Virus record (IMG/VR): IMGVR_UViG_3300031998_000064
Span: 5,533 to 69,532 of that record
Source of the DNA: a virus
Lineage: Duplodnaviria; Caudoviricetes
DNA length: 64,000 nucleotides
Direction: 5' to 3' (one strand)
This document shows positions 33,568 through 57,481 of the stretch, piece by piece. The stretch's first letter is position 1; each line of letters begins with the position of its first letter. A program made the translations under genes and the position numbers. Below the pieces are notes generated by a model. The model saw nothing but the letters and a program-made list of their open reading frames with translations. It had not been told where the DNA came from and made no database searches.

Positions 33568-35194
33568 TTAATTTATCTGTTGTACAAAACAATCAAGAAA
33601 TGCTTGAGGATTAACCTCATACAGTGTTTTTAAAAGTATTGGTTTGTTAATATCTAACTTTGTTTTACTGTTCTTTGTTTGTTCCGGAATACGAAATGCT
33701 CTATTTATAAGCCAATACATTAGTCCCGAATAATTTTTTGTAATGCCAGTTCTCCTGATATCCTTTACTAATTCATCAAAATTGTTCATCAATAAAATAC
33801 ATCTATCACTAAACCACATATCATATTGATTTTTTTGTGTTATTTCAAATTCATTTAAATCAATCGCATATTTTTCAATCAGCTTTTCTATTTTTTCGCT
33901 GCGTCTACGAGTCTCTTTGTTTTCACAAGGCTTTAGAAATTGCTCGATGGGTATTGTAGCAATTCCGCTTTTATATTTATTCAACTTAAGTTCTGACATA
34001 TAATTCATAGGACATCTTAAGTTAGAATTTATTTTTTTCTCTAAACGCTCTCGATTTTCTTTTTTACGTTTTTTCATTTGTTCGATTGATCTATTTTTTC
34101 TTGTATCTTTTTTAACCACTTTCCAAAAGAGTGGCAGTCCATTTTGATTAATATCAAGCTGAGACTTTATATATCGGATCTCATTTGGTATATCCAACTC
34201 AAACTTTTTCTTCGCACTATCTATTGCAATCTGAGCAACTGTCGCTAAGATACATACAGCATCTTGATATTTTATATCATCAAAGTTGTAAGTATATGTC
34301 AGAGCTATCTGTGCAAGGTTTGAAGATTCACCAATAGATAATTGTGATGATGCAAGAATATTATCTACTGTAGCAAAATCTTTCGGGACATTATTATATT
34401 TATTCTTTTCTTTAGGTATCAGATTAACAATTGTCGGATACTCTTTGTAACATTTTCTTGCATGTTCAACTATATCAGGCTGATTAGTAGTATAGAACTG
34501 GTCGCTATCTTGATCGCTGCCATTTGATCTTTCCTGCATACAAGTATGAATCATATTTACGGCAATACATAATCTACCAAATTTGAAATATCTATCAAAA
34601 TATGGATGATAGTGATTATGCAAAAAATCCAAGTTGTTACGACTGTTGAATGGTGATCTGAATGATGCAAGAAATTCTTTATCCCTAAACTTTTCACACC
34701 AACATTGTATCGCATTTTCTTCAACGTTAAATGTTTCATCTTTTTCGATATCCTCACCTACCGCATGAAGCAACATGGCGTATGGCGAACCAACTATCGT
34801 TAAATTATCCGCATTTTGAATTACTTCACCTGACTTAAAAACATTAACGTATGATTCTATAATTTTTCTTCGCCTGTCCCTAAAGTAAGAACTATAAACA
34901 AAATCCGGATTATGCTCCGCAAGTGCAATAAGTACATCATAATCGTTTGCAAAGTTTACATTCTTCCTTAGGTATTCAAGAAACACCCGATTATCTTTTT
35001 TCAGCTTGTCTATATATATAACGCTTCTTGCCGTCACCTCTGGCATTGTATCTAAATCGAGAGCGTTAATCATTTGGTATGACATCCTCTGTACATCACC
35101 CAACTTACTTTCGTGTGTTGTTTTAACGATGCCCCATTTATTGTGGTTCTTACGTACCCATGATGCCCAATAATCAAAAGTAATGTTAAAATTG
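33568..35194 (-). CDS. YonO-like single-subunit RNA polymerase, exon 2
   Basis: The frame extends upstream of the ORF-track start to the predicted 3' splice site. Contains FRSPFN and GSDQDSD (DxDGD-type metal site) and AQIAIDSAKK. Confidence 0.75.
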
Positions 35195-36055
35195 CATTTA
35201 TTATCCTAAAGGCTCTTTATCCTTTAGTTCTTATGATTTCTCATAAGATTAGACTATATCATCACCTTCGGCATTATCCGTTCAGGTGTCGGATTTCGTG
35301 GATGGATTATTGCTTGACTGCTCACCATCTAGTCGTTGAACCTTCTGAATTACTTTAATGTCTTTCATTCAGAGTGGTATATGGTTAGCATAGAAAATAA
35401 TTAACAAAATTCAAAATGATAGCCTTTAACAAACTGTTTGTTTCCATGACAGCATGATGATATTGCTGAAATTGGAATATTATATTTTTCAGATGCTTCT
35501 TTTTGACTATTTAATGTTTCAATAAAATTCATAAATTTGTCAAAAATATTAATAGGTTTCATTAATTTTTTAGCTCGTTTCCATTGTAAATCATTATATG
35601 TGACATTATTATACTGATTAGTACACCATTCAAGATTATCCATATGATTGTTTGTACTATCCTCATCTTTATGATTTACTTGTGGCAAATTATCAGGATT
35701 TGGTATGAACGCTTTAGCAACAAGTCTAGCAACTAAACAACGTTGTATATGTTTTGGATTGCTTAATGTAACCATTATTTGTAAATAATTATTACGATGT
35801 TTATTATATTGTTTTTGAAGTTTTAGTATTTTACCCGGTTTAAATTGCCATTTCCCTGTCGAATCTAATATTCTTCTATCTAAACTTCTTACTCGTCCAT
35901 ACGAAGATACTTCATATCCATCAAATCCATCAATTGGCTTCCAAATTTCATCTGAATTATAATTATCATTTTGCTCCATATTATTTTCCTTAGCCTTCCA
36001 CTATTAACCCGATGTTTTTAATTAATCATTTCTGATTAACTGGCCCAATTTGTTA
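35195..36055 (-). mobile_element. Group I intron (861 nt) carrying an HNH endonuclease
   Basis: Core motifs TTCAACGACTAGA and GATGATATAGTCTAA, and a P9 hairpin CTAAAGG/CCTTTAG. P1: exon UGGCU pairs with intron GGCCA with a U-G at the splice site. P10: AAATTG/CAATTT. Terminal G present. Splicing restores the frame MKWL/NFNITFDYW. Confidence 0.85.
35401..35979 (-). CDS. Intron-encoded NUMOD4-HNH homing endonuclease
   Basis: [20 protein letters not shown] (NUMOD4), [31 protein letters not shown] (HNH) and a C-terminal IENR1-like motif. Confidence 0.9.
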
Positions 36056-37002
36056 AGCCACTTCATCACACTTTCCGTACATATCAGCTTGATATCCTTA
36101 ACCTTAACATCCCTGCCAAACATATCCTTAACCGTTGCCGTATCATAATCGGTCTCAAACCTCTCACGCATAAACAATTCAATATTGGTATTGAACGCTG
36201 CACACTTGGTCATGTGGTTTCTAAGCAGGACATATCCATCGGCCCAATCGGGGAAGATGCTTGAATCAATCAAAGCTTGACCGTCAAATATACAATTTTT
36301 CAGTTGGTATGCATCCCTCTTTTTAGCAACACAGTGCTTGTCGGCATCCAACTCGATCGTTACCGCAGGAGCCGTCATGTACGAATCGACATCCTTAAGC
36401 ACAAGTACTTGGTCAGGATCAATCTCAATCGTTCCAACCATACCCGATGTAATGAGAGATTGGTATGCTCCAAGCTGAATTATCGGAGCATTCTTATCGG
36501 GAAGCTTTATATTCATAGTCAAAAATTCATGTGCCTTATCATAAAGCGAATCTCGGATGAACATACACGTTCCTTTTTTGGCCTTGCCCGGAGTCCTATA
36601 TAACATTTTATAATGGATCTCAGTATCCTTATATTTGACTGTCACTCCGTCTTCGTAAAAGATTTCTCTCAAGCGTTCCTTTTTTATCTCGATACATTTA
36701 TCTTTGTTTTTTTCGATATTGTCAAGGATCTCCGTAGCCTTATCCTCAGCATATATCTTGGGTATCTTCTCCGTTAGTTCTTTATACCCCTTGGTTTTAT
36801 ATGAGAATGCAAGACATATTATATCTCTTGAACTCCCGTCTTTGCGAACTTCCATGCCTGATTCGACCAAGAAATCTTTAAATAGGCTGTTCGACAGCAT
36901 CGCCGTTTCCGTATCGGGATATTGCCTAAAACCCCAATAACATTCATACAAGCTCGCAGCTTCATAGTTTTTTATCTTTATTCCGTATTTAGACATCATC
37001 AA
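36056..37002 (-). CDS. YonO-like single-subunit RNA polymerase, exon 1
   Basis: YKMLYRTPGKAKKG, IFDGQALID and LLRNHMTKCAAF. 947 nt (315 codons + 2 nt) joins exon 2 in frame to give about 857 aa. Confidence 0.75.
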
Positions 37003-37224: not shown

Positions 37225-37515
37225 TAATTAATATTTTGGTAATATATATATCAATATATTAAGATTAGTATATCTAGTAATTATATATATGATTAATATA
37301 TTATATATCAAATCATTATATATTATATTATTATATAAGATTAGATATATCTATATATTATATATTTATAATCTAATCATATAATTATGATTAAAATATT
37401 ATATATATAGATTATAGATAAAACTATAGTACTGTATAAGTTATAGTATATAGTGTAAATTTATACTTTACTAACTAAGTTATAGTTTAGTATATGTTAT
37501 AGTTTATTATTTTTA
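37225..37515. other. Extremely AT-rich TA-repeat tract at the point of gene divergence (candidate replication origin)
   Basis: About 290 bp almost free of G/C, with TATA/ATAT/TAGAT/TAGT iterations and no ORF. Confidence 0.45.
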
Positions 37516-38025
37516 GCGTTGACCATCGCACCATCGGTGCAAAAAGGTAATGTGTTACATATTACAAAATGGTGATCGGTTTGTGCGGTGTGTGTGGGAA
37601 AAGTTTGGCGGTTGGCTGTTGAGTGAATGGACAAAGAGGCGAGGTGCGAGTAGGGGCGATGTGCGTGTTGTAAGCAGAGAGAGGGGGTTCAACGATAAAA
37701 ATGGGTTAAAATGGAATGTGAGATTTATGTGCAGGGAGTGGTATTTTGATGTTCGGTGTGTAGATGGAATAGCTGTGATCCCCCACGGATGCGTGTCCGG
37801 GATGCCAGTTTTTAACAGCCCCTCACGGCTCAGCTCGGCTCCTCAGCTACTCCTCGGCTCTGAGTGGTAAAAATGACCATTTTCACCACCACACCATTTT
37901 TACCACCCCAAAATGAGATCAAAATTTTTGTGTCTATGATTTAGCTGTCATCGACACGGAGTGTGTGGCGGTGGCACCCACATCACATCACGTTGCCCCA
38001 CGGATAGGGGCGGAGAGGAGCGCAT

Positions 38026-38517
38026 ATGATAGACGCAAGCAAGTACACACAGACACAGGTAGCCGACAACGAGGTCACAATCGCAGGAGTAAGCTTCGGC
38101 AAGCTTACGGACACGGATGCAGAGCGCATAATCGCGATCATACGCGGTATGCAGTCGGGCGCAGAACCCGGGAACGCACGGACACAGGCACAGGCAAGCA
38201 AGCCCGAGCCTAAGCGTGAGTACGAACCCGCCACGGACGTTACGTTGCCCATCACGGTCACGAAATGCACAAAGACGCAGTTCGCGTTCACCCTCGGGTA
38301 CGGTGGCGGACGTGCAGGAGCAAAGCTCCTGATACGTGAGGCTGGGTTCGCATGGAACGCCGACCTTAAGGCGTATGCAGGCACACCTAAGCAGGCAGAG
38401 GCACTCGGACTTGCGCTTGCAAAGGGCAACGCCACACTCAAGGTGTCCGCAGCAAGCGTACAGGCAGGGCGCGATAAGGCGGCTGCAAAGGCTGAGCGTA
38501 AGGCGAAGAGAGCGTAA
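38026..38517 (+). CDS. GC-rich first gene of the right arm, basic Ala/Lys-rich C-terminus
   Basis: GGAGAGGAG RBS, 163 aa, terminator overlapping the stop codon. Confidence 0.75.
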   Translation: MIDASKYTQTQVADNEVTIAGVSFGKLTDTDAERIIAIIRGMQSGAEPGNARTQAQASKPEPKREYEPATDVTLPITVTKCTKTQFAFTLGYGGGRAGAKLLIREAGFAWNADLKAYAGTPKQAEALGLALAKGNATLKVSAASVQAGRDKAAAKAERKAKRA

Positions 38518-38534
38518 GCTCTCTCCCCTTTTTT
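38507..38534 (+). terminator. Intrinsic terminator
   Basis: AGAGAGC-GTAA-GCTCTCT followed by CCCCTTTTTT. Confidence 0.6.
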
Positions 38535-38547
38535 GTGTGTAATACAC

Positions 38548-38593
38548 GCGTTGTAAACCGGGATACGTGAGGTTCGACTCCTCACACAACGCT
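38548..38593 (+). ncRNA. Mini tRNA-like element (acceptor stem + T-arm)
   Basis: GCGTTGT-AAACCGGGATAC-GTGAGG-TTCGACT-CCTCAC-ACAACGC: perfect 7 bp and 6 bp stems with a canonical T-loop. Confidence 0.65.
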
Positions 38594-38637
38594 TTAAGAG
38601 TTACCGCTTGAGCTTTAGAGCGGATCATACACGGGTT

Positions 38638-38690
38638 ACCGTTCAGCCTTAAACGGTCAAGGGCTTGCAATTCCCGGTTGAAAATTGCAC
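38638..38690 (+). ncRNA. Structured element, possible pseudoknot (related copy at 44379)
   Basis: ACCG...CCTT/AAGG...TGCAATT...CGGTTGAAAATTGCAC. Confidence 0.3.
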
Positions 38691-38694
38691 ATTA

Positions 38695-39300
38695 TCACGG
38701 ATAGCTTAACGACAGTGCGACCAAGTAGGTTGTCGTTGAAAGCGCAACACGAAATTCGATTGTAACGGCGTGATTAGGTAGGCAAACATATAGTATGATA
38801 AACCGACATACGACTTAGACCTGCCAATCAAATCCGAGCCGTGTGAAAGGGGTGTGAATAGTTGCGTGAGTAGACCAAACAGACCGTGTACTCCACATAA
38901 GCGGTACACACGTTGGTAGCGGTTGGTTCCAAATTCAAGGTGTTCGTTTAGTGAACGGCACTCAAGATATGGGTAAGAGGCACGGATGAAGTCGGACGGG
39001 CGAGTGCAGGTGATAATGGTATCGCAGTAACAGGCTTCAAGCATCTGTCACTAAAAGATGTGTGATAGTCCTTGCGAGCAAGAAAGTGGTGTCGCGAGGA
39101 AAGGTCATATGGTGTGTTACGAAATAAAGTTATTGCGAGATAAACACGAAAGGGCGATTGGCTAAACCCAAGTAGTCATAAGGTCATCAAGTGCGGATGC
39201 GAATGGTTGAAAGGTGAGCGAGAGTGCAGGTTCGAAAGCCCTTACCAACGCACTGTAAGATTTGATTAGTTGTCAGCGTTAGCGTAAGTATCATCCGTTA
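38695..39300 (+). ncRNA. Large structured ncRNA, ROOL-like (about 600 nt; ends approximate)
   Basis: No credible ORF. Many hairpins (AACGACA/TGTCGTT, GTATG/CATAC, GTGTAC/GTACAC, CATCT/AGATG, TTATT-GCGA-GATAA). 5'/3' closing pairings (38697-38715 with 39270-39297). The blocks ACAGTGC..GTTGTCGTT, ATAAGCGGTACACACGTTGGTAG and AGCCCTTACCAA resemble ROOL RNA sequences as I recall them (not computed). Confidence 0.65.
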
Positions 39301-39468
39301 ACAATAAAAGTTACCGGATAAACGCTTGCAATAACGGTGGGAATTGTGATATGATTATAGTGTGCGTTCGGGAGTGCGTTCCCTATCCTCGATACTGGGC
39401 ATTACGATTACTGATGATAACACGATTCCACTCGGCACAACCCCCGAGCTAACAGTGGTCGTATTTAT

Positions 39469-39559
39469 AGGCGATAGTAGTGGACGGGCATAGGCTTTTA
39501 ATGCTTATGTGATAGGCTTAACCTATCTTAACTATCGGGTTCGAGTCCCGAATCGCCTG
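39469..39559 (+). tRNA. Degenerate tRNA / tRNA mimic with Lys-type anticodon loop CTTTTAA, no D-stem and a long extra arm
   Basis: Acceptor AGGCGAT/ATCGCCT; T-arm TCGGG-TTCGAGT-CCCGA; stem GCATAGGC/GCTTATGT; extra arm GATAGG/CCTATC; no encoded CCA. Confidence 0.55.
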
Positions 39560-39580
39560 TTATGAAAGGTGGTGATATAT

Positions 39581-39811
39581 ATGACTGGTATTAAATGTGA
39601 CCAAGAACGGCTTGAACGTGTCTGTATAAATCGGGACAGATGTGAGCCGTTTAACACCGACGTGAAGCCCATAGCCGAGCTAAAATTTTATAGCAAGAAT
39701 AAATGGGCATTAGTTACCGATAAGAAAACAACGTATTACGAGGACGGCTATTACGCATGGATCGACATGCAAGTGGCGACAGGCTTAATTAACCCAATGG
39801 GCGACAAATAA
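39581..39811 (+). CDS. Small hypothetical protein
   Basis: AGGTGGTGA RBS; followed by a terminator. Confidence 0.6.
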   Translation: MTGIKCDQERLERVCINRDRCEPFNTDVKPIAELKFYSKNKWALVTDKKTTYYEDGYYAWIDMQVATGLINPMGDK

Positions 39812-39833
39812 ACACCTGCGAAGGTGTTTTTTT
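39810..39833 (+). terminator. Intrinsic terminator
   Basis: AAACACCT-GCGA-AGGTGTTT followed by TTTT. Confidence 0.75.
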
Positions 39834-39861
39834 AATACACAAAAATGAAAGAGGTGAGCAT

Positions 39862-40527
39862 ATGACACTTGAATACTTATTGGAACAGCTCGGATATGAG
39901 CTGGCAGACAACATTGTAAGGCGTTGCAAGGAAAAGCTTGACAAGATTGTTAAGCGTCCGGGTACAAAAGAAGAGTATATCCGCAAGGTAAAGCGGGTAA
40001 TTGCAAGGGAGGCGTAAAAAATGAACGCAGTGAAAAAATACATCCGTAGCAAGGGATATAAGCTTGAGAGCGACTATCCTTATATGCCACTTGAGAACGG
40101 ACTTCAGGCGGTTGTGGTTGATAGTGAGAACGTGACTATTTACCACTATTACGTACAGACAGGCGGTTATATTACGTCTTTCAATCGTAACGGAAGTCTT
40201 GCGTGGGAGGATAACGAATGAGAACATTCAGAAATCGGGCGTTACTTGATAATGCTATTGCGTATTTAATCACACAAGGCAATACCGTGAAGCTAACGAA
40301 CTTGACGGCTTTATCGGTTGGATATTATATGTATGAAAGGAGCGACAAGGGAAATGGGAAAAGTGCTTAAGATCGTCAAGGGAAAACTGGAAAAGGTACG
40401 GAAATGCGACAACGAAAGCATCCGCCGTATGATAACGGAAACGGCAAGGGAAATAGGTGTCACCCTAAGGGAAAAGGACATCAAACACGCTGTTGAATAC
40501 CTGCGTTACGGAATGGCGATATGGTAG
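39862..40527 (+). CDS. Run of small early ORFs (39862..40017, 40021..40221, about 40218..40370, 40318..40527)
   Basis: Each has a GAGG-type RBS or a coupled start; no recognisable family. Confidence 0.55.
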
Positions 40528-56506: not shown

Positions 56507-57163
56507 ATGGGACAGAGATCACAGATTTATGTAAGGTGGAATGAAAGAAATGGTGATATGTATTTAGTACCACGGTATTATCAATGGAATTACGGTACCC
56601 GAATGATAAGTCGAGCAAGAGGTATTATCGAGTGGCTTAAAGGTAGCGGAACATATCTTGATTGCGGAAATGAAGAAAAGTTACGCAGAATAATGGATAT
56701 CAACTTTGATTACAAGGATGTTGTTCTTGGACATGACATTATCAAGGAATGGAAAGAATATTGTAATGGTTTAGATTTTAATGATACAGTTTTCTTCGGT
56801 CAGGACAACAATGATGGTAAGCTCTTAATCGATATGCATATTGATTGGGGAGAGAACGAAGAAAAGATAACATTTAAGTATGCATTTCTTACATATGAAG
56901 ATGATTCTCCGGTTATGAACGGAGATGAATATATGCAATGGGATGAGGGCGGTTATGAAGATACCGAGTATAAAGTTTGGCGTGATAATCCGTATCTTAA
57001 AAAAGAAATTAAGTATACCGAACGAAATATTAAATGGATTGACAAACACGCAAAGCTGATGACGGCAGAAGAAGTTAAGAGATTTACAAGTTATAATTAT
57101 GCGGCTGATATGGGATTATTGATTGAGATACCATTCACGTCAACCACCCCGACCTACGGCTAA
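56507..57163 (+). CDS. Hypothetical protein (MGQRSQIY family); C-terminus altered by element insertion
   Basis: The last codons (STTPTYG*) are read from the inserted element; the reconstructed empty site gives ...EIPFTVY*. Confidence 0.75.
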   Translation: MGQRSQIYVRWNERNGDMYLVPRYYQWNYGTRMISRARGIIEWLKGSGTYLDCGNEEKLRRIMDINFDYKDVVLGHDIIKEWKEYCNGLDFNDTVFFGQDNNDGKLLIDMHIDWGENEEKITFKYAFLTYEDDSPVMNGDEYMQWDEGGYEDTEYKVWRDNPYLKKEIKYTERNIKWIDKHAKLMTAEEVKRFTSYNYAADMGLLIEIPFTSTTPTYG

Positions 57164-57481
57164 TGCCTTAGTGGTCGGAGTTTGCAAAAGCTCAGATTGA
57201 CTACTCTAAGTTCTTCAAGAACTACGTTATTTGTGTTATCACACCTATGGATGATTCCCAAGTCCGTAGCAACTGTGGAGGCTCTGTAAACAGTTCTGTT
57301 GGGTAGGAACGGTCAACCTCAAGTGACCGATTACGGCAAGCACTTATAACATTGAGGAAGGGAAACAAACTTTCATAAGAAAGGGAAGCCACTTGCGAGT
57401 AGGCTTTAAAGGTAACAATAGGAACGCCGTATAACCGTAATTCATCCTATCACCTGTAGAGGTGGGGGATTTCTTGCTCAC
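57139..57481 (+). mobile_element. Non-autonomous IS200/IS605-type (IscB-family) element: HEARO/omegaRNA plus end hairpin, iscB deleted
   Basis: Starts GTCAACCACCCC...ATTGAC. Contains CTAAG..CTACGTT, ACACC..GGATG..TCCC.AGTCC..GCAACTG, CTCTGTAAACAG, GGGTAGGAAC and AACATTGAGGAAGGGA. Ends AATTCATCC..CACCT-GTAG-AGGTGGGGGATTTCTTGC. TCACG at both junctions. Confidence 0.85.

Follow-up and report, generated by a model that had tools for sequence, protein, structure and literature searches.

A large conserved RNA between two tRNA-like elements in uncultured gut and rumen phages, with a predicted route of excision

In the 64-kb window of phage DNA analysed here (the whole stretch, taken from the 69.5-kb IMG/VR virus record IMGVR_UViG_3300031998_000064, with a completeness estimate of 44%), a gene-free stretch of about 1 kb appears to encode a large RNA of 876 nucleotides (nt) between two tRNA-like elements, with counterparts of approximately 870 to 1140 nt in related phages. 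The comparison of these loci establishes, with high confidence, a conserved and structured RNA on the plus strand, which is longer than 500 nt, non-coding, phage-encoded and folded into a covarying multi-helix structure, the properties by which a large ornate phage RNA is recognised. We further propose, with a probability of roughly 0.55, that this multi-domain RNA represents a new family, absent from Rfam 15, within the large structured phage RNA kind, and that it would be excised from a polycistronic early transcript by the host enzymes RNase P and RNase Z at the two tRNA-like brackets. The carriers of the family are uncultured gut and rumen phages that encode a YonO-type single-subunit RNA polymerase, and the RNA is located in a rightward operon, between the conserved gene of a small basic protein (P0001 in the window) and small downstream genes.

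For the locus comparison, the contigs encoding eleven homologues of P0001 were fetched, and in every locus with enough sequence (the window, L003–L005 and L007–L013), a gene-free stretch of 1.0–1.5 kb follows the P0001 homologue on the same strand. The GC content of these stretches ranges from 44% to 55% and exceeds the mean of the locus, except in L004. Substantial sequence divergence was observed, with identities to the window RNA of 98% in L003 and 72% in L004, alignable blocks in L005 and no alignment by BLAST in the remainder. The preliminary description of this DNA had noted about 1 kb without a credible open reading frame (ORF), and this holds: the stretch from 38518 to 39581 of the window is non-coding whichever of the six frames is read and whichever single stop codon is reassigned, and between 38536 and 39565 each type of stop codon occurs 5–12 times per plus frame. 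An alternative genetic code was rejected, since a single stop reassignment opens no frame. The sole ORF of more than 60 amino acids (aa) in the stretch lies on the minus strand (112 aa) and has no Pfam or PHROG match.

The structure was assessed on an alignment of four closely related sequences, folded with RNAalifold and compared with 500 column shuffles. This fold contains 253 pairs (92.4% paired), of which 70 changed on both sides, versus 31 ± 4 in the shuffled alignments (0 of 500 reached the observed number), and only 7–14 pairs changed on both sides when the partner was slid. The fold is a series of closed domains, with closing helices that span 117–330 nt and covary. A covariance model of domains II and III (window 39018–39228) found its best matches outside the training set inside the gene-free stretches of L008 (E = 0.003), L007, L013, L009 and L011, all of them on the plus strand and in the colinear place. 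In the alignment built with this model, domain II of six or seven lineages (L011 being partial) is 91.5% paired, and 26 of its 40 pairs changed on both sides, as against 15 ± 2 after shuffling (0 of 500) and 7–12 after sliding, while in the closing helix of this domain 10 of 10 pairs did so; the covariation comes from only about nine independent lineages. The plus strand is fixed by the many G-U pairs together with the orientation of the T loops.

The core motifs were recovered by profile, E-INS-i and covariance-model comparisons and are colinear, with GAUAAACCGAC, GAAAGGNGGUG, AGGYCUCAAG, AAGAAAGUGG and ACAAAUAC in this order in all lineages, followed by the hairpin loop GAUUGRCWMA and then by the hairpin loop CACAAYCC. 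The conserved, covarying core was mapped to approximately 38690 to 39448 and comprises several closed domains. The densely paired central RNA of about 600 nt noticed earlier at 38695–39300 is therefore real, with other limits than those first drawn, and what had been taken for a second structured spacer, a separate element at 39340–39462, belongs to the conserved core. The parts of the large RNA are as follows.

38604 to 38623, plus strand: hairpin H1, just past the 5′ tRNA-like element, with compensatory changes in L004, L005 and L010.
38632 to 38689, plus strand: variable sub-domain of two hairpins (RNAalifold helices 4 and 5), absent from L005.
38690 to 39018, plus strand: domain I, closed by the helix 38690–38713 with 38991–39018.
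38797 to 38807, plus strand: family-wide motif GAUAAACCGAC of domain I.
38845 to 38857, plus strand: family-wide, Shine-Dalgarno-like motif GAAAGGGGUGUGA of domain I.
39022 to 39138, plus strand: domain II, closed by a helix of 10 base pairs (bp), 39022–39031 with 39129–39138.
39059 to 39080 with 39090 to 39111, plus strand: two nested helices of domain II around the loop AGCAAGAAAGUGGUGU.
39077 to 39092, plus strand: near-invariant 16-nt loop AGCAAGAAAGUGGUGU of domain II.
39150 to 39217, plus strand: domain III, two hairpins and a conserved strand, with aligned motifs.
39152 to 39154 with 39167 to 39169, plus strand: stem of the domain III hairpin with loop GAUUGGCUAA; 3 of 3 pairs changed on both sides across lineages.
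39175 to 39189, plus strand: conserved strand GUCAUAAGGUCAUCA of domain III.
Within 39150 to 39217, plus strand: second hairpin of domain III, ending in GGUUGAAAGGUGA.
39219 to 39391, plus strand: domain IV, a long irregular arm closed by 39219–39233 with 39378–39391.
39326 to 39355, plus strand: sigma-A-like motif inside domain IV, TTGCAA-N18-TATGAT, with an extended -10 (TGA in the spacer).
39398 to 39448, plus strand: domain V, two hairpins (helices 34–36).
39413 to 39424, plus strand: conserved strand GAUGAUAACACG in the first hairpin of domain V.
39431 to 39448, plus strand: second hairpin of domain V, CUCGG-CACAACCC-CCGAG, with a family-wide loop.

The closing helix of domain I has 20 pairs, five of which changed on both sides, as did three in the neighbouring 4-bp helix, and the two motifs of this domain (GAUAAACCGAC and GAAAGGGGUGUGA) are colinear in L005–L013. 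In domain II, the AAAGUGG loop is surrounded by both nested helices, with differing stems, in nine of the ten motif-bearing loci (eight lineages, L010 being without the motif), by a deliberately generous heuristic that also succeeds at 17.5% of random positions. Helices 28–33 of domain IV contain 13 pairs that changed on both sides among the close relatives, and the second hairpin of domain V has compensating stems in L007, L011 and L012. Both hexamers of the sigma-A-like motif are present in L003, L004 and L005 and absent from L007–L009 and L011–L013; the motif could drive the downstream genes in a subgroup or could simply be conserved RNA sequence. A pseudoknot-like element had also been suggested near the 5′ end, and an 8-nt complementarity does exist there, between the linker of the 5′ element (38556–38563) and the loop of the second hairpin of the variable sub-domain (38672–38679), and is used in the minimum free energy fold. 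This pairing was rejected because it is not kept in L004 and the whole sub-domain is missing from L005.

The brackets of the large RNA recur in all nine lineages, those of L012 having both been read by eye (the 5′ one without a T loop, the 3′ one with the variant loop UGUAAUU). In the window, they are built as follows.

38548 to 38593, plus strand: 5′ tRNA-like element, a 45-nt mini-tRNA (38548–38592) plus position 73, from the sequence and a pattern scan.
38548 to 38554 with 38586 to 38592, plus strand: its acceptor stem, 7 bp.
38555 to 38566, plus strand: its linker, 12 nt.
38567 to 38572 with 38580 to 38585, plus strand: its T stem, 6 bp.
38573 to 38579, plus strand: its T loop, UUCGACU.
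39469 to 39559, plus strand: 3′ tRNA-like element, a degenerate tRNA (39469–39558) plus position 73.
39469 to 39475 with 39552 to 39558, plus strand: its acceptor stem, 7 bp.
39490 to 39495 with 39503 to 39508, plus strand: stem of its anticodon-like arm, loop UUUUAAU.
39511 to 39527, plus strand: its long variable arm.
39535 to 39551, plus strand: its T arm, loop UUCGAGU.

D arm, anticodon arm and CCA are all missing from the 5′ element, whose position 73 is a U (38593) followed by UU, whilst the 3′ element has no proper D stem and no CCA, with a G at position 73 (39559) followed by UUAUG. ARAGORN reports 39468–39560 as tRNA-Stop(UUA), and the Rfam tRNA model gives no match to the 3′ element at E ≤ 10, so the earlier term "degenerate tRNA" is apt; the 45-nt mini-tRNA of the same description was likewise found as stated. 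A search pattern in which the two strands of a 7-bp acceptor enclose a linker (about 80 nt at most) and a T stem capped by a 7-nt T loop matched 19 times in 13.9 kb of gene-free stretches versus 20 times in 259 kb elsewhere, where the matches are mostly AT-rich chance ones, which gives an enrichment of about 18-fold, located at both ends of the stretches. The 3′ elements were found in the same place by the pattern scan in L005, L007–L011 and L013, and by eye in L004 and L012.

Across the lineages, the acceptor and T stems vary in sequence and keep their pairing through compensatory changes, as seen in the 5′ elements of L004, L005, L007, L008, L009, L011 and L013. A G-C pair closes the T loop of every element found by the scan, and the loop reads UUCRAnY, or UGCAAnY in three of them. 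No bracket in any lineage has an encoded CCA, and position 73 is mostly U, followed by UU(U). The middle parts are highly divergent, being a bare linker of 12–15 nt in the window, L008 and L009, a GNRA-capped hairpin in L004, L005 and L007, and a long hairpin with a pentaloop in L011, while the 3′ element of the window carries the anticodon-like arm and the long variable arm; among the 3′ elements, the middle parts are unrelated from locus to locus. The anticodon is not conserved either: it is UUA in the window and L003 and AAC in L008 and L009, whose 3′ elements ARAGORN calls Val(AAC) and in which a 10-bp arm displays the AAC, and unrelated hairpin loops take its place in L004, L005, L007 and L010. 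Since the CCA is missing, the anticodon loops are not conserved and the middle parts are free to vary, the brackets are not decoders; the features recognised by RNase P, RNase Z and the CCA-adding enzyme were kept, and those needed for decoding vary. In their 7-bp acceptor set on a T arm, their UUCRANY loop with a G-C closing pair and their lack of CCA, the elements have the form of processing elements of the mascRNA type. A canonical tRNA was rejected for both brackets, the 5′ one having no D or anticodon arm and the 3′ one no regular D stem or Rfam match, and a reading of the 3′ element as a UUA suppressor was rejected because UUA is not conserved and TAA is the main stop codon of the phage. 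ARAGORN found no other tRNA genes in the window.

A second mini-tRNA was observed at 2466–2507 of the window on the minus strand, with a 6–7 bp acceptor, an 11-nt linker and the T arm UAGCG-UUCGAGU-CGCUA, located in the late arm, 3 nt past a U6-bearing terminator hairpin, and followed downstream by the genes that lead to the tape measure. The genome thus uses such elements apart from the large RNA as well, which suggests that the phage may employ mini-tRNA elements as general processing signals. In addition, most of the sequence of the 5′ acceptor strand of the 3′ element recurs in domain III as GGCGAUU (39153–39159), which in the RNAalifold structure is paired with the 3′ acceptor strand at 39552–39558, with one compensated pair in a region where the alignment is unreliable; this possible pairing would compete with the tRNA-like fold.

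The brackets hold fixed positions relative to the neighbouring genes, which in the window are arranged as listed below.

38026 to 38517, plus strand: P0001 gene, GC-rich, 163 aa; C-terminal domain conserved over about 90 aa, tail rich in Lys, Arg and Ala.
38507 to 38534, plus strand: terminator-like hairpin (38507–38524, then U6), overlapping the P0001 stop codon, found by a terminator scan.
39564 to 39575, plus strand: ribosome binding site (RBS) GAAAGGUGGUGA, preceding the next small gene.
39581 (ATG), feature to 39811, plus strand: next small gene, 76 aa, with a terminator after it at 39810–39829.

The 5′ element begins 0–32 nt past the P0001 homologue in the window, L003, L007, L008, L009, L011 and L013, and stands after an extra small ORF in L004, L005 and L010. 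In L011, this element and the stop codon of the gene upstream overlap, which makes co-transcription hard to avoid there. In all lineages, 10–90 nt separate the 3′ element from the RBS that follows, as judged by eye for L004 and L012. The extra small ORFs (51–59 aa, with a good RBS) are found at 1055–1234 in L004, 1270–1425 in L005 and 4551–4727 in L010, and those of L004 and L005 can be aligned there.

RNase P, RNase Z and the CCA-adding enzyme need no more of a tRNA than its acceptor/T-arm stack, and RNase Z prefers U. With a 5′ element that touches or runs into the upstream gene and a 3′ element set close against the next RBS, tRNA punctuation of a polycistronic transcript is the simplest reading of this arrangement. 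The stretch would be co-transcribed with its neighbours, host RNase P would cleave at the 5′ side of each tRNA-like element, and host RNase Z would cleave past position 73, yielding the upstream mRNA, the mini-tRNA, the large RNA (approximately 38594 to 39468), the 3′ tRNA-like RNA and a downstream mRNA that would begin a few nucleotides ahead of its RBS. The terminator-like hairpin, 13 nt upstream of the predicted RNase P cut, would in addition shield the processed upstream mRNA, and the large RNA would act in trans, possibly with the P0001 protein. In Bacillus subtilis, CCA blocks RNase Z, which on precursors lacking it cleaves 3′ of the discriminator, while RNase P can cut CCA-less precursors and goes first when the 5′ extension is long (PMC1874595). 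The suggestion of the preliminary description that the two tRNA mimics act as processing handles is supported as far as the sequence goes, the arrangement being present in nine diverged lineages with covarying acceptor and T stems, no CCA, U-rich trailers and non-conserved anticodon loops.

Several points weigh against this proposal. The excision is put forward from a comparison of sequences, and the conservation of the brackets would suit attached, functioning ends equally well. The covariation figures are optimistic, because the structures were derived from the same alignments in which the changes were counted and the alignment made with the covariance model leans towards that model. The energy of the fold (z = -1.6 on the plus strand versus +0.1 on the minus strand) is barely beyond that of shuffled sequences, and local 200-nt windows have unremarkable z-scores; with thermodynamics this weak, the case for a structured RNA rests on the comparative evidence. 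The hairpin with U6 between the P0001 gene and the 5′ element would lower read-through, and a promoter-like site was looked for just upstream of the RNA and none was found, while the promoter-like motif of domain IV could place the 3′ part of the RNA on a separate transcript in a subgroup. Furthermore, the host, and with it the RNase P and RNase Z, is a matter of guesswork, the nearest cultured relatives of the polymerase being those of Enterocloster phages, at 28% identity. The terminator reported earlier at 38507–38534 was recovered by the terminator scan, and it may act as a leaky terminator and/or as a 3′ protective hairpin for the processed upstream mRNA. Similar hairpins or U-runs are present in L004, L005, L010 and L012, while L007, L011 and L013 are without one, and their tRNA-like element begins 0–14 nt after the gene.

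The reading that competes most seriously with excision, possible though clearly the less probable of the two, is that the brackets stay on as the working ends of a single RNA of about 1 kb, which would resemble tmRNA, or GOLLD RNAs with tRNAs. RNase P would then trim the extreme 5′ end only, RNase Z and CCA addition would finish the extreme 3′ end only, and the attached caps would guard against exonucleases or dock on the ribosome, EF-Tu, synthetases or tRNA-directed defence nucleases. The presence of conserved brackets at both ends in all lineages agrees with such a molecule, and so do several signs that point to the ribosome. The motif GAAAGGGGUGUGA (38845–38857) forms a duplex of -16.3 kcal/mol with the anti-Shine-Dalgarno sequence of a Firmicute 16S 3′ tail, which may differ from that of the host. 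A strong site of this kind (≤ -14.5 kcal/mol) was detected in eight of the nine lineages versus 1.3 expected from dinucleotide shuffles, in most of them at the homologous place in domain I, and it is to be counted as one conserved feature rather than eight independent events. The invariant loop AAGAAAGUGGUG is one G away from the RBS of these phages, AAGAAAGGUGGUGA, and GOLLD RNAs are reported to carry tRNAs in their linker and to bind ribosomes in pull-downs (bioRxiv 10.1101/2024.12.08.627333). However, Shine-Dalgarno-like sites at the weaker level of -9 kcal/mol are not significantly enriched (61 versus 51 ± 7 in shuffled sequences), and the middle parts of the brackets vary between GNRA hairpin, bare linker and long arm, contrary to specific docking. 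Moreover, RNase Z cuts precisely such internal stacks of acceptor and T arm when the trailer is U-rich and without CCA, and why the inner sites should be spared is not obvious. The element complementary to the anti-Shine-Dalgarno sequence therefore hints at the ribosome and is offered as a lead, not as a finding. It is unlikely, on present indications, that the tRNA-shaped ends, 38845–38857, the loop 39077–39092 and the basic protein form a phage ribonucleoprotein that docks on the 30S or 70S ribosome, and just as doubtful that this particle, docked at the start of infection, redirects or shuts down host translation; if true, docking on the ribosome would be the first function for a giant phage RNA.

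Other explanations fare worse. That the stretch is a string of small RNA modules working separately, making up a degenerate tRNA island of the phage in which tRNA-like cassettes stand beside others, would be in keeping with the tandem, independently closed domains of 50–330 nt, with the additional tRNA-like matches within the stretch of L013 and with the sub-domain missing from L005. We consider it improbable, as the order of the core motifs is identical in nine lineages, no tRNA-like element or terminator stands between the domains except in L013, the domain-closing helices span 117–330 nt and covary, and the overall length is held at about 0.87–1.14 kb. Regulatory or decaying DNA, namely a long leader from the internal promoter-like site together with tRNA remnants and with no trans-acting RNA, would account for the conservation of the motif at 39326–39355 in four loci, the weak folding z-score and the absence of the cassette from L002, but 70 compensated pairs would not survive in decaying DNA, nor would the order of motifs across lineages that BLAST cannot align, and five lineages have the RNA without the promoter-like motif, which makes this explanation very improbable. 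A highly divergent ROOL or GOLLD member beyond the reach of the Rfam models would share the phage setting, the rumen or gut source, the tRNA-like neighbours and the similar size; yet neither model matched the window or the nine diverged homologues at permissive thresholds, and as widely diverged homologues gave nine independent chances of matching, this is scarcely to be expected. The excision of an RNA of a new family by the host tRNA-processing enzymes is the preferred reading.

As regards family identity, a scan of the whole window with Rfam 15 at the gathering score gave a single match, to HEARO (the IscB omega-RNA), located elsewhere in the window and full-length at 57139–57370 (115.8 bits, E = 3e-23). 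No match was obtained on 38400–39700 at E ≤ 10 (ROOL, GOLLD, tRNA, tmRNA, introns and RNase P included), and nothing relevant was found in the nine homologous loci at E ≤ 1. Membership in ROOL and in GOLLD was rejected, the covariance models (for GOLLD, that of the conserved 3′ domain) being unmatched in both the window and these loci; group I and II introns and RNase P RNA were rejected for want of an Rfam match in the same searches, and tmRNA because none was called by ARAGORN or Rfam. The locus had been described as ROOL-like, with a search for ROOL and GOLLD models as the suggested check and with the joint absence of such a match and of covariation as the ground for giving it up. The Rfam search brought no match, so that the likeness is one of kind only, while the covariation is strong. 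In the literature searched, no prior description of this family was found.

ROOL and GOLLD are Rfam families of phages and prophages, among the biggest RNAs of unknown function, and form RNA-only cages by cryo-electron microscopy. The RNA described here resembles them in being a large (>500 nt), multi-domain, accessory phage RNA near tRNA or tRNA-like genes and, as ROOL was first found in rumen samples, in its occurrence in bovine-gut and gut metagenomes. It differs in having no detectable similarity to either covariance model, in being flanked at each end, always in the same place, by a tRNA mimic that is degenerate or has no anticodon, and in the conserved protein gene that always precedes it. 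By analogy with MALAT1/mascRNA, MEN-beta and mitochondrial tRNA punctuation, an embedded tRNA shape would recruit RNase P and RNase Z and so define the ends of the neighbouring RNA, and as in MALAT1/mascRNA the mimics have no decoding features and no encoded CCA; those systems are eukaryotic or organellar, whereas here two brackets stand in a phage operon known from its sequence. Species 1 and 2 of phage T4 are early stable RNAs among tRNA genes that are matured by the host tRNA-processing enzymes. Unlike in such tRNA clusters, the flanking elements here are not functional tRNAs, and ARAGORN calls no further tRNA in the 64 kb. With tmRNA and the Y RNA YrlA, the family shares an acceptor/T-arm mimic with a reduced D region joined to a larger functional RNA, but there is no tag ORF and no Rfam match to tmRNA or Y-RNA-like families, and in contrast to tmRNA, whose mimic arises where the two ends of the molecule pair, the mini-helices are contiguous.

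The P0001 protein is a candidate partner of the large RNA. It has 22 homologues at E ≤ 1e-12, whose alignment contains invariant G, K, W and R positions, and the AF2 model of its C-terminal domain (pLDDT about 75–90) comprises a beta-beta-alpha-beta-beta-alpha-beta arrangement with a basic helix behind it. Searches of Pfam, of PHROG and, by sequence, of the PDB gave no match for the protein, nor did Foldseek at E ≤ 0.001; the best VIA-align Z of 3.8 is no match, and the Atlas leads (TraD, DUF5710) are all below 0.9. The homologues are located 0.6–1.2 kb from the divergent arm, which holds the YonO-like polymerase wherever the locus extends that far. The relative L002 from IMG/VR, with 78% nucleotide identity in the polymerase, is a 28-kb fragment without P0001 and the RNA, so that the cassette is accessory. 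A search of 50,697 phage records by blastn with 38000–40000 and by tblastn with P0001 gave no match, scans of IMG/VR, JGI metagenomes and GTDB genomes guided by P0001 or its alignment returned no relatives, and four loci retrieved by a pattern scan of IMG/VR DNA with two core motifs were discarded, none being homologous by blastn. Upstream of the P0001 homologues, 0.5–1.2 kb without called genes was observed in every locus reaching far enough. In the window, 0.5 kb of G/T-rich sequence (37500–38025, GC skew up to +0.55) lies between a divergent region of 11% GC and the P0001 gene, and a similar G/T-rich stretch is present in L002; it may be a leader, a second RNA or a regulatory region, and the 106-aa ORF within it has no family match.

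The genes left of about 37.2 kb form the minus-strand arm of the window, including the structural genes and the YonO-type polymerase (PHROG 8308, with one homologue bearing a Pfam RdRP domain), those right of about 37.5 kb form the plus-strand arm, and a stretch of 11–12% GC separates the two. The polymerase gene (33568–37002, minus strand) is split by an HNH/NUMOD4 endonuclease gene (35401–35979) into ORFs of 326 and 511 aa, whilst L002 and L003 have a single unsplit ORF of 860–866 aa. This is consistent with an intron-borne homing endonuclease, and no group I intron was matched there by Rfam at the gathering score. The same sequence is present in DNA runs of bovine-gut and gut metagenomes, with no RNA run among those listed, and the four sequencing runs examined contained L003-like variants only and no new lineage. 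A clostridial or other Firmicute host is our guess, with which the Firmicute-type RBS GAAAGGUGGUGA of the window agrees.

The distinguishing features of the family are its conserved tRNA-like brackets and the dedicated protein upstream. The brackets predict the exact ends of the RNA and a maturation route through the host RNase P and RNase Z, the conserved protein that always lies beside it is a candidate partner, and the element complementary to the anti-Shine-Dalgarno sequence suggests a target; ROOL and GOLLD lack such handles or show them loosely. The principle of tRNA punctuation is familiar from mitochondria and from MALAT1, and to our knowledge no phage RNA family has yet been described that conserves it. 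Should the proposed cleavage at the brackets take place, a bacteriophage operon would be using tRNA punctuation to release a long non-coding RNA.

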